Below are positions 13,140 to 58,810 of a DNA stretch of 64,000 nucleotides, piece after piece. Below the pieces are notes generated by a model. That model saw only the letters and a program-made list of their open reading frames with translations. It made no database searches and had not been told where the DNA came from. This stretch comes from a virus. The stretch lies in the IMG/VR virus record IMGVR_UViG_3300029121_000001; one strand, given 5' to 3'. The translations under genes were made by a program, and so were the position numbers. Every line of letters starts with the position of its first letter. Position 1 is the stretch's first letter.

Positions 13140-13156
13140 TTATAAAAAAAATAAAA

Positions 13157-13635: not shown

Positions 13636-13661
13636 AAGTGAAAATATACACTTTAAATAAA

Positions 13662-13922
13662 TCTGACGCTTCTATTAAGATAAAGAATAAAATTGTAAAT
13701 GTAAAAGATTATTATACATTTAGAGATGGTATCATATTAAATACCTGCCTTATGACGTATTCTAATGTAAGTTATTCATATAGGCCATTTATTCAAGTGC
13801 GTTACGATAATAATGATAATAGTTATAGTATTAGAATACAATGTATCATTAATAGTGATATTGATGGATATAATTTCGATAATAGTGTGAATGATGGAAG
13901 TATTATAATATATTATATATAA
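13662..13922 (+). CDS. startless cassette b (86 aa), the only motif copy on the plus strand
   Basis: AAATAAATCTGACGCTTCTATTAAG. SDASIKIKNKIVNVKDYYTF...SIIIYYI. The frame is open from 13638 (GTG), but there is no RBS. Confidence 0.55.
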   Translation, partial: SDASIKIKNKIVNVKDYYTFRDGIILNTCLMTYSNVSYSYRPFIQVRYDNNDNSYSIRIQCIINSDIDGYNFDNSVNDGSIIIYYI

Positions 13923-17303: not shown

Positions 17304-17340
17304 TTATTATAATTTTAATATATTTCAAAAAAAAGAAAAA

Positions 17341-17371: not shown

Positions 17372-17587
17372 TTAAATATAATACACTATACAAGATATAT
17401 TATCATCCGTCCAAGTTGATGTATTACTACCTAAAGTAAAATGAATACAATATATCCAAGATGATTTAGATATAAATGCAATATAATTATAATAGTTTTC
17501 TTTAATTGCAACAGATATTGGAATTCCTAATGTAAACTTTTGTCCTGATTTAAAATCTATACTCTTAATTTTAGTAGAAGCGTCAGA
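17372..17587 (-). CDS. startless cassette d (71 aa)
   Basis: TGA TCT GAC GCT TCT. SDASTKIKSIDFKSGQKFTLGIPISVAIKENYYNYIAFISKSSWIYCIHFTLGSNTSTWTDDNISCIVYYI. No in-frame start near the 5' end, no RBS. Confidence 0.6.
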   Translation of the reverse strand, partial: SDASTKIKSIDFKSGQKFTLGIPISVAIKENYYNYIAFISKSSWIYCIHFTLGSNTSTWTDDNISCIVYYI

Positions 17588-17606
17588 TCATTCAAAAAAA
17601 AAATAA

Positions 17607-19131: not shown

Positions 19132-19371
19132 TTATATATAATAAATTATTGCTGTACCTGATACACAGTTATCAACATCATGTGAATTATATCCAGTATT
19201 TGCACATATATAATATAAATTTTCAGTATAATATTTATTATTCATTGTTATACTACACACAGGATAATTAGTACCATTATATATTAATACAGCAGATATT
19301 GGCGTTCCTGGTACAGAAAAATAACTTGACACTTTTACTGTTATATTTTTAATCTTAGTAGAAGCGTCAGA
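19132..19371 (-). CDS. startless cassette e (79 aa)
   Basis: TGA TAA TCT GAC GCT TCT. SDASTKIKNITVKVSSYFSVPGTPISAVLIYNG...GTAIIYYI. The track GTG start at 19332 has no RBS and lies inside the conserved region. Confidence 0.6.
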   Translation of the reverse strand, partial: SDASTKIKNITVKVSSYFSVPGTPISAVLIYNGTNYPVCSITMNNKYYTENLYYICANTGYNSHDVDNCVSGTAIIYYI

Positions 19372-19390
19372 TTATCAAAAAAAAAAATAA

Positions 19391-38744: not shown

Positions 38745-41700
38745 TTACGGTGTAGATGCAAGAGCTTCAACTTTTGCTTTCATATTTCTGAGTTGTTCCA
38801 TAATATTATTTTGAATATCTTGTGCAGAATTATTAATATCTCCAATACTAGACGCAGCACCACCAGCAGAAGATGCTAGTTGTGCAATAGATCCCATATT
38901 GTTAATAATGCCATTCAAAATACTTGCAATAGCAGGTAGAGAACTGTTATTATTAGTATTTTGAGTAATCTGTTCTAGATATTTAATAATAATATCAAGT
39001 TTTTCAACATCAGACAAACTAGAAGTATTAACTGTAGTTGCTACAGTATCAATATCAGAAGCAGAGCCTCTAGACAAAGCTTTCTTTCTAACTACAGTAG
39101 GAGTAGAAGAATGGTTAGGATTGGTGAAATCATGAGTAATAGGAATCTTAGTATTCTTAGTAGAAGAACCACTTCCAGATCTACGTGCAGCCACAGCAAT
39201 AGCTTCTTGATCAAGACGGTCAAGTGCACTACCAGTACCATGTAGAGCACTATATACCTCTTCAGCACCCTTCTTACGAACAGGATACCAAGTCTTATTA
39301 GTCTTAGCTTTTTCCATACCCAGACTAGGCATTTCATAATTTCCAAGTGCTGCAGCAGCTGCATCAGCAGGAGTTTTTGCACTCATTAGATTATTATATG
39401 CCTTAGTATACTTACCAGAATTTTTCAATTCATCATAAGCAAAATCAACCTGAGTATTTAGATCACCAACAGAAGTTCCCTTACTCTTAGCAAAAGCGAG
39501 TAGATTATGCTTACGATTACCGCTTCTAGGATTGCTATTGGCACCAGTCCACTGAGCCAAACCATATCCAACATCATCGTTAGCTTTATCAGGCCACTTA
39601 TTGTTAGAGTCTACATAATTAGTGTATTCTTTATCGCCGCCATACTTCTTTTCGAATTTGTTCTCAAGATTCATAGGATTGAAATTAGACTCGTTTTTCC
39701 AACAGCCCATAAGACCAGAAATACCAGTCTCACTCATTCCTTTACTCTTAAGACGTTTCCAGATAGCTTTAGCATTATCACTTGCATTTCCAGCATTAGG
39801 AGTAGCTACAGAATTATGGGAAGCATAGTATTCCTGAACAGCAGGATTATAAACAAATCCAAGGAATCTATACTTGGAATTTCCGCCCCAGTTTCCATCA
39901 CTACCCCTCTTACGAGATTTATACTTAAACTTGAAGGAGCTAAATCCAGATTCAGAATCCATAAGTTCATCACTGGAAATAACTTTCTCAACAACAGCAA
40001 CATGGCCAGCTCTACCAACAGTACTAGCCCAAACCATTATTGCACCTGCCTGAGGAGTAGAACCTGTTTGTAGACCAAATTTAGAAGCAAGAGCATACAT
40101 CTGTCCAGCATCTGCATGGAAGTCTCTATACCTCATGGTCTTTTCGCCCTTCATAATACTATAGATATGGTTAAAACGACCGCATGCCCAACCAACACAG
40201 TTAGAAAGAACTGAACAAGTAGGATCAGTAGGATTACCAAGTCTACAATTACTCTGTCCACCATGACTTTTAGTATTATAATAAGAGATGTAAGGATCAT
40301 TTGCCTTAGGCATTTCAGTACAGATCGGGAAAGGAGAATCTCCTGTGTATACATAGCCACCACCAGAAGAACTAGTGTCTCCATAGCTATATCCAGAAGA
40401 ATCGCCACTAGTAGAAGAGTTATTAAAGCCATTAAAAATAGTATTAACGATGGTACCAAATGTTCCACCAACTTTATTTGCTATTGCATTGAATCCTGCA
40501 CTAATACCGGTATTAATAATAGTAGATACATCCATACCACTATTACTAGTAGTAGAAGCTGTAGAACTATCAACATCAGAATCTCCACCTGCAACAACTC
40601 CAAGTTTAGTCTTCTGAAGAATACTCTTCTTATAGAGAGCAGTTCCCTTTAGTTCAGGATCATCAACAATAACATTTCCATTCTTATCCTTGCCTCTTGC
40701 CACAATGTAGTGAGGATTAGGTCCAAACGGACTATTGGTTTTAGATTTGTTTCCATCATCTTCACCAAGAAGAATAGTAGGTTTACCAGAAGAAATAGCA
40801 GAATTAATATCAGTCCTATTATCAGTATACTTAGTATCAATTCCATTTCTTCCAAGGATATCTCCAAAATAAGATGCATTAGTACCACGTTCAGATTTAG
40901 TGCTACCTGCAACATATCCCATCTTCTCAGCATATTTAGCAGTATCTGTAATATCAGTATTCTTGCCAAAAGCTTTCAAGACGGTAGATGCAACAGCAGG
41001 TCCACATCCATCTTGATCAATAGTGCTATTACCAAATTTAGTGAAGTTACCCTTTTGTGTTGTATGGATATCAGATCCAGATCCATTAAAGAAACTGAAA
41101 ATACCTTTCTTTTTCTTCTTAGAAGATTCGATCTTAGCTTTAGCGAGTTTAGCTTGATATGCCTTCTGGGAAGCACCAGATCCAGAGCCATACTTTGCAC
41201 CAGATGCTTCTTTGTTCAGATCAATATTAGATTTACTTGCAGATAGATTATCTTTTGTATCATCCTTACTAGTATCTTTATTCTTTCCTGTGAAGAAATT
41301 CTTGATATTAGTTACAGTTTTTCCAACAAAAGACTTAAACTTATCCTGAGTAGTACTCTTTCCAAGTACGTTATAAACATACTCTTCTACGTTATAAGTG
41401 TGGCCAGTTTCCTGGTTATAAGCTTCAACTGTTGCTTTAGCATCGGCTCTCTTATCAGCAAGAGTACGTGTTAGTCCCTTAAGAAAACGAGATAGAACAT
41501 TGAATACAATGTTAAAGATAGTAGTAGAACTAATAATGCCTCCAATACCAGGAATAGCGTAATTGATACCATTAACAGCAGCAGCTACACATCTTTCAGC
41601 AATAGTAGGCTTTTCAATAATTCCAAGGATACTCATAGCACGGGCATCTTCAAAACCATCTTCAACAGCTAGAGCAATCTGTCCTATATAAATAGCACCA

Positions 41701-44700
41701 GCAATCTTACTAAGAACACCAGTTACCTTAGATCCAGCCTTACCAATTGCTTGTGCAATCTGTTCAGCACAATCATCAATCCAACTAGTATCTTTACCTA
41801 GTTTCTTAGCTACGAAATTAAGTACAGCACGAACAGCACCCTTGCATTTATTTGCAATTTTTGCCATTATTTCAGCGTTCTTACTAACACCAACAGCAGC
41901 ATCAGGATCAATAACTTTAGTAGCAGCTTTATGTGTGAGTTTATCAACACCCTTTTTAAATACATCTCCTACTTTAGATGCACCCTTAAAAGGAGCAGCT
42001 ATTACTTTGCCAAAAGTAGTCTTACTAATAGCTGTTGCTGCTTTTCCAATACCAGGAATCTTACTAATAGAAGTTGCTAATTTTGCACCAGATAGAGCAG
42101 GATTATTACCAAAACTTAGTAGAGCATTTGTGGCAATTCTCTTCTTAAATCTATCAGAGAAGAAAGAAGATACATGATCATCTTGCTCATATGTAGTCAT
42201 CTTTTTGCCAGTAGCACTGATTTCAAAACGATCTACACCAAGTTTTGCTCGCTTCAGAATTTTTCCTATTCCTTTAACTTCCTTCTGGCGTTCAGTAGGA
42301 TCCATTCCTTTGCGCATTCCAGAATCTGCATCTGTTCCAGCAGCTTGTCCACCAAGATAGCTTAATCCTATAATGGTTGCAGCAGATCCTAAAATCGTAG
42401 GAAGATGTGCTATTATAGTTTTACCGAAAGTTCCTCCTAGGAAAGAAGTTATACCATCAAAAATCTTACCGAATAACCCAGAAGCTTTATCCTTAACAAA
42501 ATCAAGTATGGAAGATTTTTTCTCTCCATCTTCATCTGTTTTGCCAATACCGAAAATATCCTTGAATTTATCAAAGAAATTTCCTCCGACAAACATACCA
42601 AAGAATTTGTCCTTTAACTCAGAAGCTTTTCTCTTAGCTTTAATAGCAGCATTAGTAACAGCATCTGCAAGATTAGCAATCCATTCACCCTTAGTATTCC
42701 TTGTATACTGAATTGGATTGCCTTCATCATCAAGAACTGTCTTTGTATTGCCATCTCCACTACTAGCATTATCTCCTGTTGATTCTCCACCTTCCTGAAT
42801 AGGAGCAGAAGAATCACCTGTTACCTTTTTGGTAGGATCTTTAGCTCTATTATTACGGATAATCTCTCTGACTTTTCCTACTTCGATTCCTAGTTTCAAT
42901 GCAATACGCCAATCATTAACACCAGTATTATGAAGGCGCATAACCTCTTTAATAGTGTCTGTTGTAATGATCGTATTATTGCTATTGTTTTCTTTAGGCT
43001 TAGTATTTTCTCCAGCTACTTTTTCTGCTAACTTTTCATATTCTTTCTTAACCTCTTCTGCTTTCTTCTCCATTTCCGTAGAAGGCTTAGAAGAAGTAGT
43101 GTCCTCTTTATTTTCAGGAGGAACTACTCCTGCAGGAGTAGTAGAAGTTTCTTTAGCAGCATCAGCTATAGTAGCTTCTGTTGCAGTAGCAGGTTTCTGC
43201 TCTTTGCTTTCTGCTTCTTCAGTCTGCTTTTCTCCAGTAAGAGATTCAAGAATACCAGAAATCTTATCAGAAATAGTATCTAGAATGGTATTACGTTCAA
43301 TATCGAGTTTATCTACAGCCTCAGTAGTTGCTTCACCAGGTGTAACATTAGCTTTATTATTCAGAGCTTCTCTAGCAGCATCTTCTTTCTTATGAATACC
43401 AGCAGCATCCATACGAAGTTGCATACGAGTACGACGTAGCTCTTTCTTACTCATCTTGCTAATATCAAGACCACTTTCATTGAAGAATGTTTTCTTCTTT
43501 TCACCATAATCTTTAATATCAGCATCTATTTCGTTTAGTCTTTTAACCTCTGCTTCGATTTTTTCTGTCATCGATTTTTTAGTTGTTTCATCGAGGTTAG
43601 AATTTTCAATCTCTGCAATAACGTCGCTATAGTCATTATTATTTTTCTTATGATAATTCATAAGTTTAGTAATAGACTTAGCGAGTTTCTGGTCAGGACC
43701 GTTACCACCATGAGGAAGAGTTCCTACTAGAGTATCTCTTAGATTTTGACGAATCTGATGCTTTTCCTGCTTTAGAACAGTAGGACCATTAAGAGCAGCA
43801 TTTGCTGTCTTAATCATCTTATCACGTTCTTCTCCACTGTATTTAAGCTCCCAATCTGTCAATGCAGATTTTCTAACTTTTTTTCTTCCAGTGAAGAATT
43901 TATATCCAGAATTCTTTTCAATATCATCTCTCTCTTCTGCAGACAGAGAAGAATATCCTTTATTGATATTATGTCTTTTTAAAGCATCACCTGCGGCTCC
44001 CATAAGTTTAAAAGGAGCAGTGATAATAGCTTTGCCAACACCTAAAGCTTTTTTAGCAATCCATTTACCAGCCGTAGCTACAGGAGCAAATAGAGCATCA
44101 AATTTTTCACCAATAGTACGTCTTACAACATCCTTGGCACTGTCTACTATAGACATCATGATGCTCTTAGATTTACCCTTGACCCAATCAGTAAGAGGAT
44201 CAAACAGTCTCTTTATAGGACTAAAGAAATTCTTTTTCGCAAAGTTCTTAATTTTTTCAATACCGTTTTCAGTAAATTCTGCTAGAGGATCTATGACACG
44301 AGTTTGAATAGAACCAAGAATACCACCATGTCTTTCTCCGTTCAGTCCTTCTTTACCGAACATTGCAGATTTAAAAGTTTCAGTATCCTTAACAAGTTCA
44401 ATACCGGCACCAAGTACAAATCCACCCATGACACCACCAGGAGCAAGTCCAATGGTTCCAAGAATTGCACCAAGTGCACCAGCTTTACCCATATCAGGAA
44501 CTTTTTCTGTGATAAATTTCTTAGCTCCTTTAGGAAGAATTCCCTTCTTAATCAGATTCTCGTGATCATCATATTTTCCAAATAGAGCTTCTGATAGAGC
44601 CGTTGAATTGTTAACAATAACAGCACCAGATCCTAGAACAAGGCCACCAAGAAGTCCTAATCCAGACCCAGTTAATGCTGCACCTGCAAGTGCACCAAGA

Positions 44701-47700
44701 CTACCAGCTGCTGCTACCTTAGGAAGATCAACCTTAGCAGCTCTAACAATTTCATTTCCTGTTTTCTTTAGATCTTTGTAGATATCATCTCCACCAAGGA
44801 AATAATCCATGGCTTCTTTGAGTTTGCCCTTGCCATAATCAACACCGGATTTAATAGATTGACCAACAGGAGAATTGAGGAATTCACTAGAATAATGAGC
44901 AGTTTTTTCTTCTGCCCATTTAGCATATCCAGAAAGTACTTTTCCACAATCATTGATCTTTTCTTTTACTTTATTATTTTTTCTTGCATCACTGATATAT
45001 TCAACAATTTCAGGAGATACACCAACACCATCAGCAATATATTGAACAGATCTTCCACGGTTAAGTAAAGTGTTAATCTGTTTAGCTTGTTCTTCTGTAA
45101 TATCATTAGGTTTGGGTTCTTTTTCTTCAGGCTTATCTTCAACAGTGCCACCTTCAGCAAAACTACCAAAGAAGGTACCACTATTTCCACCAGCTTTTCT
45201 CCAAGCTTTATAATTTCTACGTTCAATAGCCTTACGCTGTTCATCAGTTAAAGCACCATGATACATAGGATTATACTTAGCAGGAATAATCAATTCACCT
45301 TCAGAAACAGAAACCATTCCAGATTTTCTGACCTGTCCACCTTTATAAGATCCTTCAGGTTTTGCATCATTATTAGGAATAGGAGGAGCTACTTTATCAG
45401 GATTCCATGCAGGAAGTTGAAACTTGGTAGATGCTACAGGAACGTCTACATATTCCTGTTTACCGTCTTTATTAGTTTTTAAAACTCTTGCTTTAAATTT
45501 ATGCTCTTCAAAAGGCTTTTCTTCTTTAGGTTTACCAATCTTAAAATGCTCTTTAATATATTTTAAAGTACCATCTACTTGTCTATCAGCATACTGTGCA
45601 GTACCTCTTACAAAGCTAGCGAGAATATCCTTATTGGCTTTAATATATTTTTCACCAAAATTGGTTTCTTGAAACTTCTTCCAAAGCTCATCTGCTTTTT
45701 TAGCAAATCGCTCAGGGAAATCATATATAGCATCACTAATACGAGAAGGAAGATTAAGCATATATCCAAAGAATCCGCCATCTTCATCTACTTGCTCTTT
45801 AAGTTTAGTGCCAAGATCACCAAACATAAAGTTTTCCATTAGATCATTAATCTGATCAATAATGAAAGATCCAACAGTAGATTCTTCTTTAGCCTTATTC
45901 TTTTTAAATAATAGGCTACCACGGCTCTCTGCCTTAGGCTTTTCATACTGCTTAGTTTCAGGATTATAAACGTCTCTACCTTCAGAATCTATAACAGTAA
46001 AACCTCTCTCCGTAACTTCTTCAGAAGTTACGGGTTTCTTTACTGTTTTATTAGCATAAATATTAATATTATCAGGAGCAGTATATTGATTTAGATCAAA
46101 TCCATATATAGATCTTGAAGGGTTAGCAGGGGCAGGCTGTGCAGAATTACCAGAACTTGAAAGTTGTGGCTGCCCACTAGATCTTCCATTTCTATGAAAT
46201 GCTTCAGTAATTCTACTAAACAATCCACCATTGTTAGGAGGATTAGTTGTATTCTTACCACCAACAATATTATCTTTAACTTTATCGAGATCAAATTGCA
46301 TGGCAGACTGGAAGTCTACCATCATTCTGATATTTTTATAGAAATCCTGAAGATAGAAGAATACATTATTTCCAAGATTATCTTTTACATTAAAGATATT
46401 ATTCTTATCAGAGTTTAGATTGTTAGTATACTTGTGAGTATTAGCAAGGCCAGATCCATTTGCAATATTGCTAAATGTACTATCAGATTCACTAATCTGA
46501 TCAACAAATTTAGCATTTGCAAGTTGTCCTTGATACACACCATTATACAGCTTTCCAACACCAGATTTTTTCTTAAAAATCAATCTATCAAGAGCTACAA
46601 TGCTCTTATAATTCATCGGATACTTAGATTGATCTCCAGAATTACCAATCCAGCCTTGAGCAACACAGAATTTTACAATATCTCCAGTCTTATGAAATCT
46701 ACCAGGTTCTACTCCCTTAAGAGTCAAGAAAGACATTAGTTTATCATAATCTTTGCTCAAGGATCTAACAGCTCTACTGTTTTCGGTATAACTAATATGG
46801 CCAGGAGTATTTCTATGAATTTCATTATCTTCAGAAATGAAATCATTGATCAATTCCCTCTTCATTCCTCTACTAGCATTACCAATAACTTCTTCTCTCT
46901 TCTTTTTAAAATCATTAACAGATCTACTAGCAGTAACAAATCTACCAGTTTCATAATTAAAGATTTTAGCTTCTTTACCAGAAAGAAGTGCTTCAATGTT
47001 AGCCAGATAAGTAGGAATAACTTCTCTCAAAGCTTTACTATCTTTACCTGTCCAATCTACTCGTCCCTTGTTGTAATTGCCAAAATCCATCTTAGGTTTA
47101 GTTTTAGGAGTAATATCCAAAAACTTAGCAATTGTAGCAAAGAATCCATCACCCTTTGCATATTCATGCATACGGCCAGCAATCTTCATCATACCATCTC
47201 TAAGAATAGAAACAGTTCTATCAAGCGCTTTACCAGTAGGACCATTCTGAATCTTAGAAGTAAGAGACATAGTAAGAGCAGTAGCAATAGGAGATGCTAG
47301 ACCACCACCCTTGATCAGCATATTGATCATATCAGGGCTTAGAACAGCTGCTAGAGAGTCTAGATCATATTCTTCCATAAATTTCTGAGTAGCAAACTTG
47401 CCCCATTCACCAAGGTCAGGAAGATCTCCTCCCATAACTTTTTCCCAAGGAGTTTGCTTTCTAGATCTAGCAGATTCAGTAGATTTAGGAGAAAATCTAT
47501 CAGTAAGCAAATTCTTAATATCTTCTAGATATTTAGTTTGTTTAGCCATTTCTTCACTAGTCTGCTTGAAGAAAGTATCAGCATTTAGTGCCAAACTATT
47601 AACAGGTTTAACAATATCAGTGTGAAGATTAAGAATAGAAGAATTGATGACAGACAGAGAATTATTCATCATACCGAATAGTCTCTGATTATTGAGCATC

Positions 47701-48239
47701 ATATTTCTGCTATTCTTAGTAGCATTACCAGCAATCTTTCCAGCAACTGCTTCAGAAGTAATTAACTGATGATACGACAATTGATTTCCTAGGCCATGAA
47801 TGGCTCCAGTAATCTCAGAAGACTCATTATCACTAGAAGATTCTTCTTCCTTATTATCATTATCATCGAAGTCAAAATCTTCATCATCAAAATCAAAGCC
47901 TGTCATACCCATTGATTCTGCAAAAGCACCAATGGCAGCATCTTCTCTTTCTGCATTATAGAACTTACCAGTCTTAAGGTCATCGAGAATATTTTTCTTG
48001 ACATCTTTCAAAGAGTCAAGGTTCTCTTCACCGACCATTTTACCAAGTTCATTTCTAACAGTACCTTTGAAATCTTTCACTGCATAATACATGTCTTTTG
48101 CAGCAGATACATTATCAGAAATGTAATTGGTTAATGTAGGATTGACACCTTTGGCAGTCTCAGTAGCAACATACTTAATGGATTTCAATACATTCTTGGC
48201 ATATGTATTGGGATCCACAAAGCCAAATCGATTAGCCAT
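38745..48239 (-). CDS. giant (3164 aa) tape-measure-like virion protein with C39-like peptidase, CHAP and phage-tail-lysozyme domains
   Basis: AAGGAGG RBS. Gly-rich membrane-like segments (GSLGALAGAALTGSGLGLLGG). DQDGCGPAVAST...PHYIVARG (about 40650-41030). NCVGWACGRF...GHVAVVEKV CHAP (about 39950-40270). GLMGCWKNESNFNP...GYGLAQWTG...QVDFAYDEL (about 39380-39760). Confidence 0.85.
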   Translation of the reverse strand: MANRFGFVDPNTYAKNVLKSIKYVATETAKGVNPTLTNYISDNVSAAKDMYYAVKDFKGTVRNELGKMVGEENLDSLKDVKKNILDDLKTGKFYNAEREDAAIGAFAESMGMTGFDFDDEDFDFDDNDNKEEESSSDNESSEITGAIHGLGNQLSYHQLITSEAVAGKIAGNATKNSRNMMLNNQRLFGMMNNSLSVINSSILNLHTDIVKPVNSLALNADTFFKQTSEEMAKQTKYLEDIKNLLTDRFSPKSTESARSRKQTPWEKVMGGDLPDLGEWGKFATQKFMEEYDLDSLAAVLSPDMINMLIKGGGLASPIATALTMSLTSKIQNGPTGKALDRTVSILRDGMMKIAGRMHEYAKGDGFFATIAKFLDITPKTKPKMDFGNYNKGRVDWTGKDSKALREVIPTYLANIEALLSGKEAKIFNYETGRFVTASRSVNDFKKKREEVIGNASRGMKRELINDFISEDNEIHRNTPGHISYTENSRAVRSLSKDYDKLMSFLTLKGVEPGRFHKTGDIVKFCVAQGWIGNSGDQSKYPMNYKSIVALDRLIFKKKSGVGKLYNGVYQGQLANAKFVDQISESDSTFSNIANGSGLANTHKYTNNLNSDKNNIFNVKDNLGNNVFFYLQDFYKNIRMMVDFQSAMQFDLDKVKDNIVGGKNTTNPPNNGGLFSRITEAFHRNGRSSGQPQLSSSGNSAQPAPANPSRSIYGFDLNQYTAPDNINIYANKTVKKPVTSEEVTERGFTVIDSEGRDVYNPETKQYEKPKAESRGSLLFKKNKAKEESTVGSFIIDQINDLMENFMFGDLGTKLKEQVDEDGGFFGYMLNLPSRISDAIYDFPERFAKKADELWKKFQETNFGEKYIKANKDILASFVRGTAQYADRQVDGTLKYIKEHFKIGKPKEEKPFEEHKFKARVLKTNKDGKQEYVDVPVASTKFQLPAWNPDKVAPPIPNNDAKPEGSYKGGQVRKSGMVSVSEGELIIPAKYNPMYHGALTDEQRKAIERRNYKAWRKAGGNSGTFFGSFAEGGTVEDKPEEKEPKPNDITEEQAKQINTLLNRGRSVQYIADGVGVSPEIVEYISDARKNNKVKEKINDCGKVLSGYAKWAEEKTAHYSSEFLNSPVGQSIKSGVDYGKGKLKEAMDYFLGGDDIYKDLKKTGNEIVRAAKVDLPKVAAAGSLGALAGAALTGSGLGLLGGLVLGSGAVIVNNSTALSEALFGKYDDHENLIKKGILPKGAKKFITEKVPDMGKAGALGAILGTIGLAPGGVMGGFVLGAGIELVKDTETFKSAMFGKEGLNGERHGGILGSIQTRVIDPLAEFTENGIEKIKNFAKKNFFSPIKRLFDPLTDWVKGKSKSIMMSIVDSAKDVVRRTIGEKFDALFAPVATAGKWIAKKALGVGKAIITAPFKLMGAAGDALKRHNINKGYSSLSAEERDDIEKNSGYKFFTGRKKVRKSALTDWELKYSGEERDKMIKTANAALNGPTVLKQEKHQIRQNLRDTLVGTLPHGGNGPDQKLAKSITKLMNYHKKNNNDYSDVIAEIENSNLDETTKKSMTEKIEAEVKRLNEIDADIKDYGEKKKTFFNESGLDISKMSKKELRRTRMQLRMDAAGIHKKEDAAREALNNKANVTPGEATTEAVDKLDIERNTILDTISDKISGILESLTGEKQTEEAESKEQKPATATEATIADAAKETSTTPAGVVPPENKEDTTSSKPSTEMEKKAEEVKKEYEKLAEKVAGENTKPKENNSNNTIITTDTIKEVMRLHNTGVNDWRIALKLGIEVGKVREIIRNNRAKDPTKKVTGDSSAPIQEGGESTGDNASSGDGNTKTVLDDEGNPIQYTRNTKGEWIANLADAVTNAAIKAKRKASELKDKFFGMFVGGNFFDKFKDIFGIGKTDEDGEKKSSILDFVKDKASGLFGKIFDGITSFLGGTFGKTIIAHLPTILGSAATIIGLSYLGGQAAGTDADSGMRKGMDPTERQKEVKGIGKILKRAKLGVDRFEISATGKKMTTYEQDDHVSSFFSDRFKKRIATNALLSFGNNPALSGAKLATSISKIPGIGKAATAISKTTFGKVIAAPFKGASKVGDVFKKGVDKLTHKAATKVIDPDAAVGVSKNAEIMAKIANKCKGAVRAVLNFVAKKLGKDTSWIDDCAEQIAQAIGKAGSKVTGVLSKIAGAIYIGQIALAVEDGFEDARAMSILGIIEKPTIAERCVAAAVNGINYAIPGIGGIISSTTIFNIVFNVLSRFLKGLTRTLADKRADAKATVEAYNQETGHTYNVEEYVYNVLGKSTTQDKFKSFVGKTVTNIKNFFTGKNKDTSKDDTKDNLSASKSNIDLNKEASGAKYGSGSGASQKAYQAKLAKAKIESSKKKKKGIFSFFNGSGSDIHTTQKGNFTKFGNSTIDQDGCGPAVASTVLKAFGKNTDITDTAKYAEKMGYVAGSTKSERGTNASYFGDILGRNGIDTKYTDNRTDINSAISSGKPTILLGEDDGNKSKTNSPFGPNPHYIVARGKDKNGNVIVDDPELKGTALYKKSILQKTKLGVVAGGDSDVDSSTASTTSNSGMDVSTIINTGISAGFNAIANKVGGTFGTIVNTIFNGFNNSSTSGDSSGYSYGDTSSSGGGYVYTGDSPFPICTEMPKANDPYISYYNTKSHGGQSNCRLGNPTDPTCSVLSNCVGWACGRFNHIYSIMKGEKTMRYRDFHADAGQMYALASKFGLQTGSTPQAGAIMVWASTVGRAGHVAVVEKVISSDELMDSESGFSSFKFKYKSRKRGSDGNWGGNSKYRFLGFVYNPAVQEYYASHNSVATPNAGNASDNAKAIWKRLKSKGMSETGISGLMGCWKNESNFNPMNLENKFEKKYGGDKEYTNYVDSNNKWPDKANDDVGYGLAQWTGANSNPRSGNRKHNLLAFAKSKGTSVGDLNTQVDFAYDELKNSGKYTKAYNNLMSAKTPADAAAAALGNYEMPSLGMEKAKTNKTWYPVRKKGAEEVYSALHGTGSALDRLDQEAIAVAARRSGSGSSTKNTKIPITHDFTNPNHSSTPTVVRKKALSRGSASDIDTVATTVNTSSLSDVEKLDIIIKYLEQITQNTNNNSSLPAIASILNGIINNMGSIAQLASSAGGAASSIGDINNSAQDIQNNIMEQLRNMKAKVEALASTP

Positions 48240-50194: not shown

Positions 50195-50458
50195 TTAAAT
50201 ATAATAAAGCGTAGATATAGTGCACTCCATTATAATTATTCCAGAAGCATTATAAGCAAGTGCCATTATATATGAATCTATTTGTGTTAACATACATTTA
50301 TATCTTATTACTTTCATATTTAATGAATATCCAATCATAGTTCCAGAAGCTAAATAATAACAGTATTCATTAAAGTTACCATATTGATTATTTATCTGTG
50401 TATATACTGTTTTTATATCAGATAATTTATGTATAATATTTTTCTGAGAAGCGTCAGA
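50195..50458 (-). CDS. startless cassette f (87 aa)
   Basis: AAATAAATCTGACGCTTCTCAG. SDASQKNIIHKLSDIKTVYTQINNQYGNFNEYCYYLASGTMIGYSLNMKVIRYKCMLTQIDSYIMALAYNASGIIIMECTISTLYYI. Confidence 0.55.
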   Translation of the reverse strand, partial: SDASQKNIIHKLSDIKTVYTQINNQYGNFNEYCYYLASGTMIGYSLNMKVIRYKCMLTQIDSYIMALAYNASGIIIMECTISTLYYI

Positions 50459-50474
50459 TTTATTTGATAATATA

Positions 50475-50711
50475 TTAAATATAGAATATTCTTACATTAT
50501 ATTTTGCTAAAATAATATCATGTGCGTTTAAGTCAATATTAAATGCAGCGATTCCATATTGTGAATTACTAATGTAATATATGGATACATATGGAAGTCC
50601 AGATATAGAATTCACATCTTTACATACTGCAGATATTACAGTTCCATTTTTAAAAGTTTTTAGTTCTGGGATATACATATCTATATATTTAATTTTAGTA
50701 GAAGCGTCAGA
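50475..50711 (-). CDS. startless cassette g (78 aa)
   Basis: TAA AAT AAA TCT GAC GCT TCT. SDASTKIKYIDMYIPELKTFKNGTVISAVCKD...NVRIFYI. The internal ATG at 50678 has no RBS. Confidence 0.6.
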   Translation of the reverse strand, partial: SDASTKIKYIDMYIPELKTFKNGTVISAVCKDVNSISGLPYVSIYYISNSQYGIAAFNIDLNAHDIILAKYNVRIFYI

Positions 50712-50720
50712 TTTATTTTA

Positions 50721-51638
50721 TCTTATCATTATAAGAGGGAAAACTCCTTTACTACCATAATACACAGGTGCATTAGCAACTTTTACTTCAGATCCAGATG
50801 CAATATACCATGGCATATCATAACTGTGTCCTCCTTGAGGATAGCTATTGTTTGATAATCCACGTAAGAAGCCATCTCCAAATTACCAAGTAGTAAAATT
50901 AAAATATGGTAATTTATAATTAGCTTCACCATCATCATATTTGTTGTTATTAGAAGCAAATTTACCAGTAATTTGTCCAGCACTCATTAATGTACAATAT
51001 GCATTTGTCCAAGCATAACCTGTATTAGTAAGATTGCCATTGACATATTCAGTTTTATTAGATAATAATACCTTTCTTTTAACTAAATGATTATAAAAAA
51101 TAGATTTTTTCATCAATATATCAGCTGTAGTTGAATTCAAATCTTTATGCACACCTGTACTTACATATCCAGTATCTTCAAATATCATGCCATTTGATGA
51201 TTTATAAAGAGGTTCTGTAGGAATCATAAATATACCATATCCATTATCATATGGTGTTCCATCTGAAGCAGTTTTATTATGTTCACAATCAAAACCTACA
51301 ATAACCCATTTCTTATTGTAAGTACCATCTTTAATAGTTATTGTAGAACCAATAGAAGCACCATAATAACCTGTAAAATTACTACATCTAATAAGAAAAT
51401 CATCTAGATCAATAGTAGTTTCATCATGATTAATGGATAATGTGCCAAGGTCTTGAACTTTATATCTAGTATTAGGAGTAGAAGTATCAATAGGAAGATT
51501 TTTTACATCTCCTAGTATTTTAATAATAATAGATTGTATAGTTGTATTTTTACTAAATTTACTTTTAGCAGGAATTCCTCCAACTGTGTATCTTGTTACA
51601 ATATCATTCTCTAATATTAAATTAGTAGAAGCGTCAGA
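50721..51638 (-). CDS. startless cassette h: long receptor-binding-like module (251 + 54 codons) interrupted by an in-frame TAA; paralogue of cassette i
   Basis: TAA TAA TCT GAC GCT TCT. SDASTNLILENDIVTRYTVGGIPAKSKF...ANYKLPYFNFTTW-TAA-FGDGFLRGLSNN...GVFPLIMIR. The first in-frame ATG is 136 codons in. Confidence 0.6.
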
Positions 51639-51660
51639 TTATTATAAAAAAAAAATAAAA

Positions 51661-51682
51661 GGGAGTAGATTTCTCCACTCCC
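51661..51682 (-). terminator. intrinsic terminator after 51691..52136, abutting the cassette motif
   Basis: gggagtag/ccactccc hairpin followed by TTTTATTTTTTTTT on the minus strand, then ATAATAATCTGACGC. Confidence 0.7.
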
Positions 51683-51690
51683 TTTTATAA

Positions 51691-52136
51691 TTATTCTTCG
51701 CCTTCTTCCCATTTATGATGACGCTCTTCTTCGAGCATCCTCTCGTTAATAGACTTTGGAAGTCTCTTCATACGAGATACATTGGTGATATACAGCTTGC
51801 TATCATTACCAAGCTCAACAATGTACTTGCATTTTGCATTGAATACGGGAGGATAAAATTGCGTCCAGCCTTTATCAAACAAGTACTGATAGCAGTACCT
51901 ATAAATCTGGCGCATAGTAGCACCAGATTTTGCATTGCCATGATTCACCATATGGCGAAGCATGGCGGAATATTTTTTACCCTTACGGGTAAAAATCAGG
52001 TTGATATCATGCTTTTCATGCTCAAAAGGAGCACGCGCATGGCATTCATGGCTTTGTCAAATTCCTCCCAGTACTTATCTTCATCACTGATACAAGTAGT
52101 GTTGATATCGTTCATATTGTTGTTCATGTTAGCCAT
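51691..52136 (-). pseudogene. frameshifted gene (or -1 frameshift / sequencing indel), GC-rich
   Basis: AAGGAGG RBS plus ATG at 52136 opens a frame that stops at 51996-51998. The -1 frame is open from 52056 to 51691 (…FEHEKHDINLIFTRKGKKYSAMLRHMVNHG…). Overlap window 51999-52056. Confidence 0.55.
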
Positions 52137-52338: not shown

Positions 52339-52587
52339 TTAGTGAGATTTAATAACATTAAAGATTCTATCAAACTTAGCAATCTCTTCTTGAGTATAAT
52401 TTTCTCTACCAAGTCTTGCTAATGTATTAGCATTGATAAGAGTATCTCTTTGCATAGAAGCGTTAGCATTAAAATACCCATTATCTCTAGAAATATACAT
52501 AGCATTTCTAGGATTAAATTTCTCCCAAGCAAGACGAATGAAAGTCTGATTCATCGGTACCAAACAATATATAACATCTCCGTCAAA
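52339..52587 (-). CDS. RNA polymerase beta-prime-like subunit (N-terminal fragment type), exon 2
   Basis: Opens FDGDVIYCLVPMNQTF..., completing the AAD|FDGD catalytic motif begun in exon 1. Confidence 0.8.
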   Translation of the reverse strand, partial: FDGDVIYCLVPMNQTFIRLAWEKFNPRNAMYISRDNGYFNANASMQRDTLINANTLARLGRENYTQEEIAKFDRIFNVIKSH

Positions 52588-53129
52588 CCTAAATCGGACA
52601 CTTTAGGAAAGTTAAAATTGAAATAAGCGAATCTTATGTCATTCATGTACCCTTACACATGAAATATTTAAAATTGCTTAAAACTGCATATTTTAACTTT
52701 TCTTTTAATTTAGCGATCATATCTTTATCCAGTAAAGATTCTGCAATTCTTTATTTATCTGGATATATATCGTTTCGATTTAAATGGATTTATCTGCTGC
52801 CTCAGTACCATACCTATATAATATAGGCTCTACATAATGATCTGTGGGCACACTCATTTCTGAGCTTCGCTGCTGGTTGTCAATTTTATACTATAATAGT
52901 ATTGATCTTTAAGGAACTTAATTTTCATTAAGCTTTTATTGCATCCTAGATCATCCTGTAAATTCTTTCTGACTTTCGTCGGCTTTCACGCTTACCATTG
53001 CTAGTTACGTTGTAGCTTTACAGGCATTATGGTTTTCCAGCAATTAGATATATTAGCGACTCTAAATTACTTTAGAGAAGGGACTTCTGTGGTGATATTA
53101 TATATTATAAATAGCACCACTGCTATTTA
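52588..53129 (-). ncRNA. group I self-splicing intron (542 nt, no ORF)
   Basis: Splits AAD/FDGD. 5' exon ends in U (GAT); the intron ends in G (…GATTTAGG). CCCACAGATCATTATG and AAAGATATGATCGC resemble the conserved R and S elements and can pair as P7 (GATCAT/ATGATC). GC-elevated, no ORF. Confidence 0.75.
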
Positions 53130-54554
53130 ATCCGCAGCCAAAAATTTCAAGATCTGCAGAGGAACTGCTAGAGTATAGGTATTAGTAATTCCAACACAGA
53201 ACATTTGCAGAATAGAGCCATAAGCAAGTGTAGGATTTCGGCCAATTATTACCGGTAATCCACGCATACCTTTATGCTTAAAATCATCAATGATAGATTG
53301 AATAATCGTATTGATCTTTTTATTAGGCTCAATAGTAGCTTTATACCAGATATCATGAGCTTCTGTTGGAGTCATACCATGCATACGGCAAAGAATATTT
53401 TTAATTCTCTGCTCAAGCATAACAGTCAGAGCAACTGCAGGCATTGTAATTTCATCAATACGAAGATTGGGATTTTGAACGATAACACAACGAGAAGAGA
53501 AGTTATACCGTCCACCGAGAAGACATCTAAAATCACCTTTCTTACCAGCAAGGATATTAATTTGCTCTGAATAAATATCCATAAACTTCTTCTGGAGATT
53601 ATAAAGCTGCTGATTCTTGATCTTAGGTTCTCTCTGAATAGCAGTCTTATTCTTGTTGATAGAAGTTGCTAGTTTATTGATCATGGCATACATTGCATTT
53701 GTAGGCTCATATGTCATGTTATTTCCATCGATATCAAAAGGACGAAGTAGAGTAGTAATAACAGGAAGAGACGATGAGAATACAGACTCTCTAGCTTCAT
53801 AAATAGCATCATAATAACTCTTCTTATTAGGATACTTTTTAATATAATAATCCATAATCTCATCGAATCTTTCAGTGAATTCTATCATACCAATTCCAAA
53901 GAAAGGTTCATCCTTAAGCTTAGGATCATCTCTAGACATCGTATTGAGAACAAGTTGAGTATCTGTGACATCAAGAATATTCTCAAGCTTAGTACGCTTA
54001 TTACCTTGAATATAGATGCCCTTACCAAGAATAGATTCAATATAGATATAGAATGTAGGATGAATAAACTTATATGGTTTAGATAATTTAATCCAACCAC
54101 AATACTTGAAGTTATCATCTACATATGTGCACAAGTGCCCACATTGAGGACAGCGAAGACCATAATTAATACGTCCTCTAAGTCCTCCTTCTTTACATCT
54201 ACAACGATACCTATCCATAAAAGGATTAGTATCAGCAAGAGTCTGTCCAAACTTTGGAGAGAAGATACCATCTTCTGCACGAAGATCTTTCTTGATGTTA
54301 CGTCCTGCAGGTTCTACAATAAAGCCATTGCCTTCACGAAGATCATCTTCACAAGCTTTATCATAATTAATGATCTCAAGCTTACCAGAGAATTCATATT
54401 TATCAGAATGAGGATAAGTTTTACTGGTAGACATAAGATCATTAAGATGAGGCTTAAGGAAATTAAATTCCTGTTGATGCTTCATCTGATATTCGATATT
54501 GTAATCGTGGAGTTGTTTATAGTTGCTAGTGTCAACATTATATTTCGTTTCCAT
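53130..54554 (-). CDS. RNA polymerase beta-prime-like subunit, exon 1
   Basis: Zn-binding CRCKEGGLRGRINYGLRCPQCG; LLGGRYNFSSRCVIV; ends ...LKFLAAD. AAGGAGG RBS. Confidence 0.85.
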
Positions 54555-55360: not shown

Positions 55361-56227
55361 TTACCTAATATAAATAAGCGGACGAAGACCGAGCCTGCTA
55401 TAACAGAGGTTCCAATCTGGTTTACCAGAATTTGAAATACCATAGACATAGTTATTGCCATAACTTTTACTGCATATTCCACGCAACCAAGCCCAATTAT
55501 CAAAACTCCATGTTTCATAATTGAATAATGGTAGTTTATAATTAGCTTCTCCATCATCGAATTTATTACTAGTAGAAGCAAATGTGCCAGTTACTTGTCC
55601 TGTACTCATTAACGTGCAATATGCATTAGTCCATATATAACTATTAGCACAATAATTAGAATCTCTAGAAGTACTCAATAGAACATTACGTAGTACAAGA
55701 TGCTCACCAAGTACTCTCTTAAGGTTATCTGCAACTTCAGATAATATAGTCTTATTTATAGCAGATCCATTATATCCTTTTTCAGTAGAACTAGAATCCC
55801 ATACTACACTACCTAAACTCCTCCTAGGTATTAAACATATACCATATCCATTATCATTAGTATTTCCATCAGATGCTGTTTGATTGTGTTCCATATCGAA
55901 ACCAGCAATAATCCATTCTTTATTATATACATCATCTTTAATAGTAACATAACTACCAATAGTAGCACCGTAATAACCAGTATCATGGCAACATCTATAA
56001 AGAAAGTAATCTATATCACTAACATTAGACCAAGTCCCAAGATCCTGAGACTTATAACGTGTATTAGGTGTAGAAGTATCAACCGGAAGTTGTCCACTAT
56101 CTCCTAGCATTTTAATGATAATAGATTGTATAGTATCAGTTGCAGAGAATTGAGATCTTTTAGATATACCTCCAACAGTATATCTAGTATTATAAATTTG
56201 GACTCCAAGTTTATTAGAAGCGTCATT
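55361..56227 (-). CDS. startless cassette i: long receptor-binding-like module (288 aa), variant motif AATGACGCTTCT
   Basis: NDASNKLGVQIYNTRYTVGGISKRSQF...ANYKLPLFNYETWSFDNWAWLRGI...GLRPLIYIR. The track N-terminal extension to 56350 overlaps cassette j in another frame and has no RBS. Confidence 0.6.
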   Translation of the reverse strand, partial: NDASNKLGVQIYNTRYTVGGISKRSQFSATDTIQSIIIKMLGDSGQLPVDTSTPNTRYKSQDLGTWSNVSDIDYFLYRCCHDTGYYGATIGSYVTIKDDVYNKEWIIAGFDMEHNQTASDGNTNDNGYGICLIPRRSLGSVVWDSSSTEKGYNGSAINKTILSEVADNLKRVLGEHLVLRNVLLSTSRDSNYCANSYIWTNAYCTLMSTGQVTGTFASTSNKFDDGEANYKLPLFNYETWSFDNWAWLRGICSKSYGNNYVYGISNSGKPDWNLCYSRLGLRPLIYIR

Positions 56228-56231
56228 CTTA

Positions 56232-56456
56232 TTAAATATATATGATGTTTGCATGGCAGTCATCAGTATAAGATGACGCTGTACCATTACTCCAGTGTCT
56301 AATCCATCTATAATATAATTTTCCGTTATTTTGATAAATCCAATCAGCATCGTTTCTTACGTCATCTAATATATCAAATCCTATTATAGTACCATTTAAT
56401 GTATATCCAGATTTTGTGATATAAATATTATAAAGCTTCTTTATAGAAGCGTCAGA
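56232..56456 (-). CDS. startless cassette j (74 aa)
   Basis: TAA TAA TCT GAC GCT TCT. SDASIKKLYNIYITKSGYTLNGTIIGFDILDDVRNDADWIYQNNGKLYYRWIRHWSNGTASSYTDDCHANIIYI. Confidence 0.6.
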   Translation of the reverse strand, partial: SDASIKKLYNIYITKSGYTLNGTIIGFDILDDVRNDADWIYQNNGKLYYRWIRHWSNGTASSYTDDCHANIIYI

Positions 56457-56470
56457 TTATTAAAAAATAA

Positions 56471-56505: not shown

Positions 56506-57711
56506 TTATTTCTTATATTCCATTTCGTAGAAACTCAAATCATACGGATATGGAACTTTTGGTTTACAGTTTCTATCACAGTATCCACAAGATTTGGATT
56601 GTCCACTTAACACTGAAGACAATATAGGAATATTAAAATTGCCACAATCGCACTTGCAAATTACTCGTTGATACAAACTTGGTTTATTAATGCTTATATC
56701 TTCTGGGTTATAAATATATGCTGCTTTGATTATAGTAAGTTTTCCATGATGTTCACCTTTATAAATTTTATCAACAGCAGATGGAGTTGATTTCTGATAC
56801 TTCTTACCACACTTGTCGCAAGTAGTTCTCTGCAGTTTACCATTCTCTAATTTTGTAGATACATATCCTCCACAATCACATTGACATACCACATTAAAAT
56901 GAGAAATCGTGCGATCATATCCACTAATTACAGGTACTGCTTGTACGATTCTAAGTTTTCCATACTTCCTTCCAATCAATTTAGGTGTATATTCTTTTGC
57001 ATAGCAGTATACGCATTCACCATATTTTTTATTCCAGGCAAACAGTACATCTTTGCAATCAGTATATGCATTACCACATTTAATACATTTAAATGTACAC
57101 TTATCGAGATCTTTTGTAACACTAATAAGTTTAAGTCTTGAAATACGTCGTTCAAGATCCATTCTGCATTGAATTTCCATCAATTCATCGCACTTAGTGC
57201 AATTGGGATATACAGATAGTGCATTATTTAGTGTAATACGATTGACTTCACCACAAGAATGAACTGTATAGACATATGTGGTATTCATCAATTTAATGAT
57301 GTTGTCACTGGTAAATTCACATTCTACTTTATCATATCTCCTATCATCTCTAGAAAGATTTCCAATAATCTGACACCATCCAAATGCCTGATGGTCTTGA
57401 GCCCAGATATATCCTACGTATTCATTAGGATCAAAGATGTTGTCACACTCCTCTTTAACGATGAATGTATTGGACTTGCTAGCTTCAAGTATAGCATTGA
57501 ATGCATCTTTTGAATTATCAATACCATATACATTAGAATCATATGCGCTAATATAGAGATTGATATATTTATCACTTGTAATAAAGTAATGCCCTTTTGC
57601 TTTTATGGAAAATATCATTTCTCTATTTAAGCCAATTCCAATGAATAGTGTATTAGGAAAATACTTATAGATACTTTCCATATACTCGATAACCTTTTTC
57701 TTGTCAATCAT
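56506..57711 (-). CDS. Cys-rich protein with C-x-C-D-C-G repeat modules (paralogue of 33126..33884)
   Basis: KYGKLRIVQAV..VVCQCDCG and HHGKLTIIKAA..ICKCDCG. The ATG at 57711 (MIDKKK) follows AAAGGAG; the track start at 57762 lies inside the promoter-like motif. Confidence 0.8.
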   Translation of the reverse strand: MIDKKKVIEYMESIYKYFPNTLFIGIGLNREMIFSIKAKGHYFITSDKYINLYISAYDSNVYGIDNSKDAFNAILEASKSNTFIVKEECDNIFDPNEYVGYIWAQDHQAFGWCQIIGNLSRDDRRYDKVECEFTSDNIIKLMNTTYVYTVHSCGEVNRITLNNALSVYPNCTKCDELMEIQCRMDLERRISRLKLISVTKDLDKCTFKCIKCGNAYTDCKDVLFAWNKKYGECVYCYAKEYTPKLIGRKYGKLRIVQAVPVISGYDRTISHFNVVCQCDCGGYVSTKLENGKLQRTTCDKCGKKYQKSTPSAVDKIYKGEHHGKLTIIKAAYIYNPEDISINKPSLYQRVICKCDCGNFNIPILSSVLSGQSKSCGYCDRNCKPKVPYPYDLSFYEMEYKK

Positions 57712-57759
57712 TTTAACTACTCCTTTTTTAAATTGTATGATAGGACAACTTCTTCCTAC

Positions 57760-57775
57760 CATATTTATAATATAT
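57760..57775 (-). promoter_or_regulatory. promoter-like motif ATATATTATAAATATG
   Basis: 49 nt upstream of the 57711 start. Confidence 0.4.
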
Positions 57776-57787
57776 ATTCATTTCATA

Positions 57788-58762
57788 TTAAAAGTAAATA
57801 TCTCTATTAAAAGCCTCTTTAAAACTCGCTTTAACTTTACTGCTATTCACATTACAATAAATCATAGTAGTCTCTAATTTGGCATGCCCGAGAACTTCTT
57901 TAATCTGTTCTACAGGCATTCCTCTATCCATTAGATGAGTTGCACAAGTTCTACGGAATCGGTGAGGATGTACATTCTCTACTCCAGCTCTATCACCAAT
58001 ATCCTTAAGAATTAATTCTGCACCTCTTGGAGTCAATCTATGGCCATTTGAAAGATGTGTGAATAAAGGTTGATCCGGTTGAGCATAACGTTCTTCTAAA
58101 TATTCTTGTAAGTATTTCATACAATTATTACTTAGATAAACAACTCTCTCCTTATGACCTTTACCAAATACTATAACTTCGCCTTCATTGAAGTTGATAT
58201 CTTTTACATTAAGACTAATAACTTCAGCAAGTCTAGTTCCAGTAGAATATAGAAATTCAACAAATGCTTTATCTCTTTTATTAGTACATTCTGCTCTAAG
58301 AGCATCCATCTCAACATTAGAGAAAGCTTTCTTGATTTTCTTTTCACACAATACTCTTTCAATTTTATTAGTAGGATTTTTCTCAATGAATTCTTCATTT
58401 ACAAGAAATTCATAAAAAGAGCTAATAGCTCTAATCTTAGTCTGTAATGTAGCAGCTTGAAGATTTCTTGCTTTAACCATATAGGCAAGATAATCCTTCA
58501 TATCTGCAGTAGTAATGTCTAAATAACTCTTTCCATTATAGTACTTAGCCATTGCTCTAACTTCTGTTACATATCCGGTCAAAGAAGATGGTTTTAGTCC
58601 TACTAAACTTTTCTGTTGTATGAAGCGTTCTATCAACTCTTCATTTGGTAGAGCGGTTCTAGATGTTCTTAGAATTGTATCCAGAACGTTTTTCAATTTA
58701 GCTAGTTGAATTTCATTTAATTCTGGTCCCATCAATTTTAGGATCATCTCTATATTAGTCAT
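57788..58762 (-). CDS. tyrosine site-specific recombinase (XerC/XerD / phage integrase family)
   Basis: N-terminal SAM-like domain. Catalytic signature GTRLAE...HPHRFRRTCATHL...LGHAKLETTMIY. The ATG at 58762 (MTNIEM) follows GGAG. Confidence 0.9.
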   Translation of the reverse strand: MTNIEMILKLMGPELNEIQLAKLKNVLDTILRTSRTALPNEELIERFIQQKSLVGLKPSSLTGYVTEVRAMAKYYNGKSYLDITTADMKDYLAYMVKARNLQAATLQTKIRAISSFYEFLVNEEFIEKNPTNKIERVLCEKKIKKAFSNVEMDALRAECTNKRDKAFVEFLYSTGTRLAEVISLNVKDINFNEGEVIVFGKGHKERVVYLSNNCMKYLQEYLEERYAQPDQPLFTHLSNGHRLTPRGAELILKDIGDRAGVENVHPHRFRRTCATHLMDRGMPVEQIKEVLGHAKLETTMIYCNVNSSKVKASFKEAFNRDIYF

Positions 58763-58810
58763 CGCTATATCTCCAATCACAATTAATGTACATTAAGGAG
58801 GACTTTTCAA

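Follow-up and report, generated by a model that had tools for sequence, protein, structure and literature searches.

Phage tail fiber switches are known mainly as compact invertible segments. Gin (Mu G segment), Cin (P1 C segment), and Min (p15B) are serine invertases acting on compact invertible tail fiber segments, and the known phage switches hold two to six alternatives in one such segment. Neisseria pilE/pilS and Borrelia vlsE instead vary by non-reciprocal homologous gene conversion. Tail fiber shufflons have also been described in Bifidobacterium prophages (the Rin shufflon; PMC6109161) and in BV01-like Bacteroides phages, with 3 cassettes in 1.7 kb (PMC13596623). Here, we analyze a 64,000-nucleotide stretch (the window) of IMG/VR virus record IMGVR_UViG_3300029121_000001, which comes from a human gut jumbo phage of ∼258 kb and corresponds to positions 45,928-109,927 of a Joint Genome Institute (JGI) contig of 258,080 bp (3300045988|Ga0495776_079947). 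Its minus strand carries a tandem array of three cassettes, h, g, and f, the first of which is interrupted by an in-frame TAA. From comparative sequence analysis, we consider it highly likely that h-g-f are silent spares for the C-terminal receptor-binding tip of one fiber, which would be expressed via site-specific recombination with a constant N-terminal part (N-const).

The array is headed by an intrinsic terminator (51645-51688, minus strand), a hairpin with a 15-bp stem at 51688-51655 plus a T-run, which belongs to and ends the upstream 90-amino-acid (90-aa) gene (51691-51963); it shields the array head and keeps h-g-f untranscribed from upstream. Directly 3′ of the T-run stands TAATCTGACGCTTCT, at 51641-51627. 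Cassette h (50718-51641, minus strand; site at 51627-51641) reads from TCT at 51638 to AGA at 50721, a frame of 306 codons closed by a terminal TAA at 50718-50720. It is followed by cassette g (50475-50714, minus strand; site at 50700-50714), with a tip of 77 aa counted from the GAC codon and ending in ...RIFYI, and by cassette f (50195-50461, minus strand; site at 50447-50461), with a tip of 86 aa ending in ...STLYYI. All three lack a start codon at the 5′ end, and each opens with the site AATCT/GACGCT/TCTAnTAA, which encodes S-D-A-S. At the h-g junction, the terminal TAA of h (50720-50718) is followed in frame by AAT AAA TCT GAC GCT TCT of g; the g-f junction is not in frame. The coordinates, the head-to-tail order after a single terminator, and the in-frame h-g relation given by the original prediction, made from this DNA alone, all hold. 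Its claim that h aligns along its length with another cassette of the window, i, is also borne out (∼51% identity over 95% of the length). Cassette h belongs to a large h/i family of fiber tips and is 84-90% identical to P0118 (locus L150) and P0119 (locus L149), which are intact, silent copies. Cassette g is found in most related arrays.

The identity of these fragments emerged from homologues that are expressed elsewhere. A search with cassette i returned hundreds of homologues, with the exact protein on contigs of about 258 kb. About two dozen of them are 419-442 aa long and carry an additional 137-aa N terminus, MAIIDKIKVGSTTYDVSPS...IPTSALIYSMNQTLTSLNDAS, which meets the i-type domain exactly at a D-A-S motif. 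This N terminus is N-const, ending in ...YSMNQTLTSLNDAS (...LTSLNDAS). Searching with N-const alone yielded 84 proteins; it is 76-96% identical among ∼60 type-1 proteins, and >20 C-terminal modules of 65-105 aa, unrelated to one another, follow it at NDAS. Among the tips fused in this way, window cassettes a, b, c, d, f, i, and j and the h clade all have homologues, for example, an f-type tip in P0126, an h-clade domain in P0213 (442 aa), and i-type tips in P0003-P0020. In relatives, N-const resembles the N terminus of a neighboring protein with Phage_fiber_rpt repeats; because of this likeness, we assign N-const to the virion-proximal part of the fiber and the cassettes to its exchangeable tips. 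From a structure model of N-const plus an i-type tip, we conclude no more than a folded tip domain with a lectin-like end. In a PDB fold search with this model, C-type lectin matches were weak and the sole notable match was the IgA peptidase of T. ramosa (E value, 1.5e-3; template modeling [TM] score, 0.27). Recovering these loci required the N-const alignment as a query, a single-protein query (P0165) having found no related loci.

Cassettes and N-const meet at a defined 19-bp site that encodes SDAS. A motif like AATCTGACGCTTCT occurs 15 times in the window at ≤3 mismatches; it is not a chance occurrence, since 2.9 matches are expected and 0 of 100 shuffles reach 15. The exact core, GACGCTTCT, is present in nine copies, all at the 5′ start of start-less cassettes, whose frames read (N-K-)S-D-A-S there and end in ...YYI or ...IYIR before the stop. 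Across 96 distinct contexts, the silent-site consensus is AATCTGACGCTTCTAttAA, with no variation at positions T4, G5, A6, G8, C9, T10, and T13; silent sites read a T-run or the previous stop, then ...AATCT/GACGCT/TCTAnTAA. At the expression site, the junction is invariant in 19 loci, ACTTCGCTAAAT/GACGCT/TCTAnTAAA (upstream side also written ...CAGACTCTnACTTCGCTAAAT; N-const junction sequence, ACTTCGCTAAATGACGCT). Homology among N-const loci of different genomes breaks exactly at GACGCT. Thus, the site consists of a variable left arm, which stays upstream, a 6- to 7-bp core (TGACGCT), and a right arm (TCTAnTAA), which stays with the cassette; as codons, it reads x-D-A-S. Scanning IMG/VR with the bare 14-mer gave ∼118 unrelated single matches and was uninformative.

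In relatives, N-const and ∼150 bp upstream of it form a module of ∼950 bp in total that is bounded by the same sites. Its order is site (+), a short "stub" segment, site (-), the promoter region, N-const, and the expression site (+). The module is seen in at least five genomic contexts: beside the recombinase and a second fiber gene (L119, L122, L124, L132, and L133); near the prohead protease, 55 kb from and on the opposite strand to an h-g-f-type array of the same contig (L123); in L130, with a homologue of the window's 219-aa gene on one side and of its 352-aa gene on the other; in L136, next to a gene homologous to the one for 167 aa in the window; and in front of a homologue of window cassette a (L127). 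The last context can be compared directly with the window, where the site is empty: the terminator of a 108-aa gene is followed by a site and a and then by an 824-aa gene. In L127, this terminator and this 824-aa gene enclose site/F12/F43/stub...N-const/a/F45/F46; every boundary falls at GACGCT, and neither flank has changed its orientation. An exact look-up with the ATG-start 108-aa open reading frame (ORF) found the same arrangement only.

The module was also recovered as a candidate excision product. L163 (ENA ERZ27287044 k141_685194), a MEGAHIT contig of 1085 bp, has a 141-nt terminal overlap and therefore represents a 944-bp circle. This circle is exactly the module, closed by N-const/GACGCT/ATTACGAAG, and its junction reads NDAITK followed by a stop, which would be an OFF form. 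The same N-const/stub junction is also found integrated in a genome (L164). Taken together, the L127 insertion and the L163 circle indicate that direct sites do recombine, with excision and integration as the outcome; inverted sites probably recombine too. These reaction types are read from comparative genomics and one circular contig and should be viewed accordingly as putative.

We propose the following mechanism. Expression of a tip would need N-const and its promoter, both carried on the ∼950-bp module, and conservative site-specific recombination at the 19-bp site would join N-const to a cassette. The reactions would be excision and integration between direct sites and inversion between inverted sites, and the module itself would move between arrays. 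Only the first cassette after N-const would be translated, as each cassette ends in its own stop. We give an even chance to the more specific idea that the mobile unit is the promoter plus 5′ exon, a ∼950-bp circle re-inserting before dozens of silent 3′-exon arrays that lie behind terminators.

Two other modes of exchange must be weighed against this evidence. In one, cassettes would be copied into the expression site through homologous recombination or non-reciprocal gene conversion, in the style of pilE/pilS or vlsE, and the recombinase would have a separate role, such as that of a genome-dimer resolvase. The layout of many silent copies and one expressed copy would suit such a process, the recombinase scores best with Xer-type families, and one chimeric N terminus (P0181, in L164) resembles a product of homologous recombination. 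However, the junctions share only ∼19 bp, with sharp breaks of homology at GACGCT; no conserved 3′ flank has the length that homologous recombination would need; and the 944-bp circle and the module insertions with sites on both sides fit conservative site-specific recombination. We therefore regard gene conversion as unlikely. The chimera itself (ENA ERZ27271590 k95_34715, positions 933-1364) takes its first ∼45 aa from the second fiber type and the rest from N-const, lies right after the Cys-rich gene described below, and ends in the stub (NDAITK and a stop), which suggests homologous recombination between two fiber N termini.

In the other, a classical inversion-only shufflon such as that of Rci would flip segments around a fixed N-const. 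Relatives do have sites in both orientations; the stub segment and the N-const segment each lie between inverted sites; in P0141, N-const seems to have been inverted so as to join the other end of the stub; and, as in sfx sites, the core and right arm are conserved and the left arm varies. Inversion alone would not account for arrays made of direct repeats across at least 43 kb of the window, for module insertions that leave the orientation of both flanks unchanged, or for a circular excision product, and we consider it improbable as the sole reaction.

The most likely enzyme is an XerC/D/XerA-like tyrosine recombinase of the Phage_integrase family encoded at 57788-58780 (minus strand). It adjoins the primary fiber/cassette locus both in the window and in relatives whose fetched locus covers the region. 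Its best NCBIfam matches are XerA, XerC, and XerD, of which only the XerA model reaches its cutoff (220.2 versus 220); integron-integrase models score 102.6 and 65.8 bits versus cutoffs of 265 and 435, and no Rci-specific model is among the matches. Immediately downstream lies the gene for a 418-aa protein rich in Cys-x-x-Cys pairs (56506-57762, minus strand), which has no family match. A Cys-x-x-Cys-rich protein of 400-418 aa accompanies the recombinase in every fetched locus covering the region, and it may conceivably be a recombination accessory factor.

Comparison of ten places with an identical downstream 55-aa gene indicates that the h-g-f locus varies. The array reads h-g-f in this phage and in ERZ28662610 and F5-g-f, F5-g-F4, or x-g-F4 in other places; a separate look-up found F29-F30-h-f in L149. 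Within ERZ28662610, a 161.5-kb scaffold (ENA contig L152) stops 53 nt beyond the g core, and a 96-kb scaffold ends, by coordinate extrapolation, at the g site. These ends are suggestive of more than one upstream partner of g in that population. In the more distant L128, the gene preceding h has a homologue (51% identity), and the module directly follows it.

Several observations weigh against the proposed recombination. N-const was not found in the 64-kb window, and a metagenome scan with the N-const alignment did not return this phage's contig, nor is it in IMG/VR. The L163 circle could stem from a tandem duplication of the module. The assignment of the 57788-58780 recombinase to the 19-bp sites, although the most likely one, is drawn from its adjacency and from the site architecture. 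Finally, contig ends are only modestly enriched near sites and are suggestive at most: 4 of 38 lie within 60 nt and 6 of 38 within 150 nt, a distance that covers ∼13% of all positions.

The silent state of the array also explains the stop codon inside cassette h. As the original prediction had noted, h contains an in-frame TAA (50883-50885, minus strand) at codon 252, after 251 open codons, and the frame then continues for 54 sense codons (...GVFPLIMIR); its alignment of TTW-stop-FGDGFLRGL in h with ETWSFDNWAWLRGI in i is likewise correct. Comparison with relatives places CAA opposite the TAA in both DNA relatives, L149 and L150, where the cassette is silent and intact, and Gln occupies this position in 13 of 13 h-clade proteins examined, as TWQF or TWQY. 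The TAA is therefore a CAA-to-TAA nonsense change of a clade-invariant Gln. Versus L150, the ratio of nonsynonymous to synonymous substitution rates (dN/dS) is 0.42 after the stop and 0.45 before it, and no indels follow the stop. Since the segment shows no decay, the mutation must be recent. We conclude that the TAA is a single, recent C-to-T nonsense mutation that is harmless in a silent spare, tolerated because the cassette is silent.

A base-call error at 50883-50885, for which the original prediction had proposed resequencing, would leave h intact, and the change is indeed a single-base difference from relatives. However, five contigs, from JGI assemblies and an independent ENA assembly, share an identical 114-aa ORF that runs up to the TAA. 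Since the same allele occurs in five contigs from at least two different samples, the TAA is real and inherited, and an error has next to no chance of being the explanation.

Readthrough or recoding of the TAA, the other reading offered by the original prediction, would have h translated through the stop and possibly into g, giving nested extended products. It draws on the 54 codons that stay open past the TAA and on the terminal stop of h being in frame with g. The former is explained by the recent date of the mutation. The latter is a coincidence, because 12 of 47 distinct tandem junctions at all loci are in frame, no more than expected by chance (30 are +1 and 5 are +2). Furthermore, TAA is the main stop codon, ending 39 of the 52 long frames in the window; the only tRNAs of the window are Met-CAT and Leu-TAG, with no TAA-suppressor tRNA among them; and h, which lacks a start codon and a promoter and sits behind a terminator, has nothing upstream that could be translated into it. 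Together with the CAA in relatives, these findings make readthrough highly improbable.

The first reading of the original prediction, a silent archive of donor cassettes in which a nonsense codon is tolerated, has stood up: the cassettes have no start codon or promoter of their own, their homologues are expressed elsewhere only as N-const fusions, the TAA replaces a clade-invariant Gln, and two other silent cassettes are disabled in relatives. Overall, of the two readings in that prediction, the archive is supported and readthrough is not, and the prediction missed both the SDAS-coding 19-mer site and the mobile promoter/N-terminus module. The two further disabled cassettes were found among 72 distinct cassettes of the larger families, both in silent positions. 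In L127 (2502, minus strand), an Arg codon has become a stop with a conserved sequence downstream (...VVMI-stop-GFGS...ARVYYI), and in L133 (18524, minus strand), the cassette is disabled by a frameshift.

Were h to reach the expression site, its fiber would lack the last 54 residues. In the N-const plus i-type model, the tip domain is confidently predicted (predicted local distance difference test [pLDDT] score, ∼90) and has five β-strands after the TAA position, so that a truncated h tip would probably not fold and the fiber would probably be nonfunctional.

A diversity-generating retroelement (DGR) was also considered as the origin of the TAA and rejected: the window has no reverse transcriptase (RT) and no template repeat (TR), including for h or i; the TAA lies ∼6 codons upstream of the start of the variable region (VR); and the change is C to T. 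A DGR is present in L119-type relatives of the MAIIDKIKV clade (L119, 11146-12350 and 12276-13790), with a 504-aa RT and TR/VR differences mostly at template adenines. There, the VR is the C-terminal variable region of an expressed i-type tip and starts at W-L-R-G-L.

Ten cassettes (a to j) were called in the window; c has a degenerate site, and the other nine have the exact core. The first cassette of each array lies right behind the terminator of an unrelated gene, and later cassettes start a few bases 3′ of the preceding cassette's stop. Cassette a (12915-13142, minus strand) is silent here and has expressed homologues P0127, P0149, and P0158. Cassette b (13659-13922), the sole plus-strand cassette in the window, has the expressed homologue P0161. 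Cassette c (16761-17306, minus strand) has the degenerate site TAATTTGACGCTTAT and a 179-aa tip starting ...DAYLLKSGGTMTG, with an expressed homologue in L138; cassette d (17372-17590, minus strand) has expressed homologues P0177, P0167, P0157, and P0169; and cassette e (19132-19374, minus strand) is a start-less frame behind a site. Cassette j (56232-56459, minus strand; site at 56445-56459) lies directly 3′ of the terminator of the 418-aa gene and has expressed homologues P0180, P0146, and P0173-P0179. Behind it, cassette i (55361-56230, minus strand) is silent, with an internal site variant, AAGAATGACGCTTCT, at 56216-56230 and a 287-aa tip. Neither Pfam nor PHROGs gave a family for any cassette. 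Annotations should mark the ORF fragments without start codons, and likewise the "truncated" 114-aa ORF, as silent cassettes and not as genes. The phage GenBank collection yielded no relative: a distant DNA search with the locus matched tRNA only, and a 24-kb near search and tblastn with cassette i gave no match.

Other features of the window and its relatives were noted in passing. A second fiber gene with a related N terminus, absent from the window, is split between two frames at ...YAGGG / GGTTTTTYHRRP... (L119, 6579-9054; L122, 6816-8394) and occupies different genomic positions in L139-L141; a programmed frameshift or a phase-variable tract could account for the split. At 52339-54554 (minus strand), an RNA polymerase β′-like gene is also split: exon 1 (53127-54554) ends in ...LKFLAAD and exon 2 starts with FDGDVIYCLVPMNQ... 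near 52590, with ∼540 nt inserted at the catalytic DFDGD motif. This gene is unbroken (557-574 aa) in L122, L154, and L157-L159, and L153 and L156 carry an ORF for a 245-aa NUMOD4/HNH_3 endonuclease in the same gap. The insertion looks like a self-splicing intron with or without a homing endonuclease; Rfam gave no match for it at an E value of ≤0.1. A 3164-aa ORF (38745-48239, minus strand), with Pfam matches to Peptidase_C39_2, CHAP, and Phage_lysozyme2 near its C terminus, probably encodes a virion-associated or ejected giant protein that degrades cell walls.

Fiber tip switching sets which hosts a phage can infect. The lineage described here comprises widespread human gut jumbo phages and holds ten or more silent tips within 64 kb, and the proposed recombination offers a testable mechanism for rapid host range change against gut bacteria with variable surfaces. 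It would also explain why assemblies of these phages break or differ at cassette loci, and it suggests a compact recombinase-and-site pair for in-frame domain swapping.

The literature searched contains no description of this system, but fiber switching by site-specific recombination is already known, and the stop codon of h is an ordinary consequence of silence. As in Mu, P1, p15B, the Rin prophages, and BV01-like phages, the distal fiber is switched at a recombination site inside the coding sequence. Unlike these systems, the locus has at least ten cassettes in 64 kb, dispersed arrays, and a mobile promoter/N-terminus module, and the enzyme adjoining the fiber locus, the one considered here, is a tyrosine recombinase and not a serine invertase such as Gin, Cin, and Min. 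With pilE/pilS and vlsE, it shares one expression site and many start-less silent partial copies, in which defects are possible; it differs in its sharp junctions at a 19-bp site. The resemblance to DGRs acting on tips with a C-type lectin fold concerns relatives such as L119, in which an i-type tip is a DGR target.

The R64 shufflon (Rci, pilV segments, and 19-bp sfx sites) is closer: in both systems, a constant N-terminal part is joined in frame to alternative C-terminal segments, a tyrosine recombinase is adjacent, and a site of ∼19 bp is conserved in its core and right arm and variable in its left arm. On the other hand, the cassettes here lie in dispersed direct-repeat arrays behind terminators (13 to 56 kb in the window) and not in a compact invertible cluster, the recombinase fits Xer-type models, the examined loci yielded a count of >80 cassette families, and the circle and the insertions with unchanged flanks indicate excision and integration, a broader repertoire than inversion only.

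Integrons likewise have promoterless cassettes in direct arrays, an Xer-related tyrosine recombinase, and expression of only the promoter-proximal cassettes, and they excise cassette-sized units as circles, although here the circle is the promoter/N-const module and not a tip cassette. They differ in that the conserved element here is a 19-bp nonpalindromic duplex within a reading frame, where integrons have attC sites, imperfect inverted repeats that recombine as folded single strands (the hairpins seen at array heads are terminators of unrelated genes), that the cassettes are gene fragments (3′ exons) and not whole genes, that no IntI-type integrase was matched, and that the promoter-bearing unit appears to move to the arrays. 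The system thus lacks defining features of both a shufflon (compactness and inversion only) and an integron (an IntI-type integrase). If its mobile unit is indeed the promoter and 5′ exon, it would be an integron turned inside out, through which one phage lineage reaches a pan-genomic library of >80 receptor-binding tips, with built-in OFF states (N-const joined to the stub, NDAITK and a stop) and a DGR layered on one tip family.

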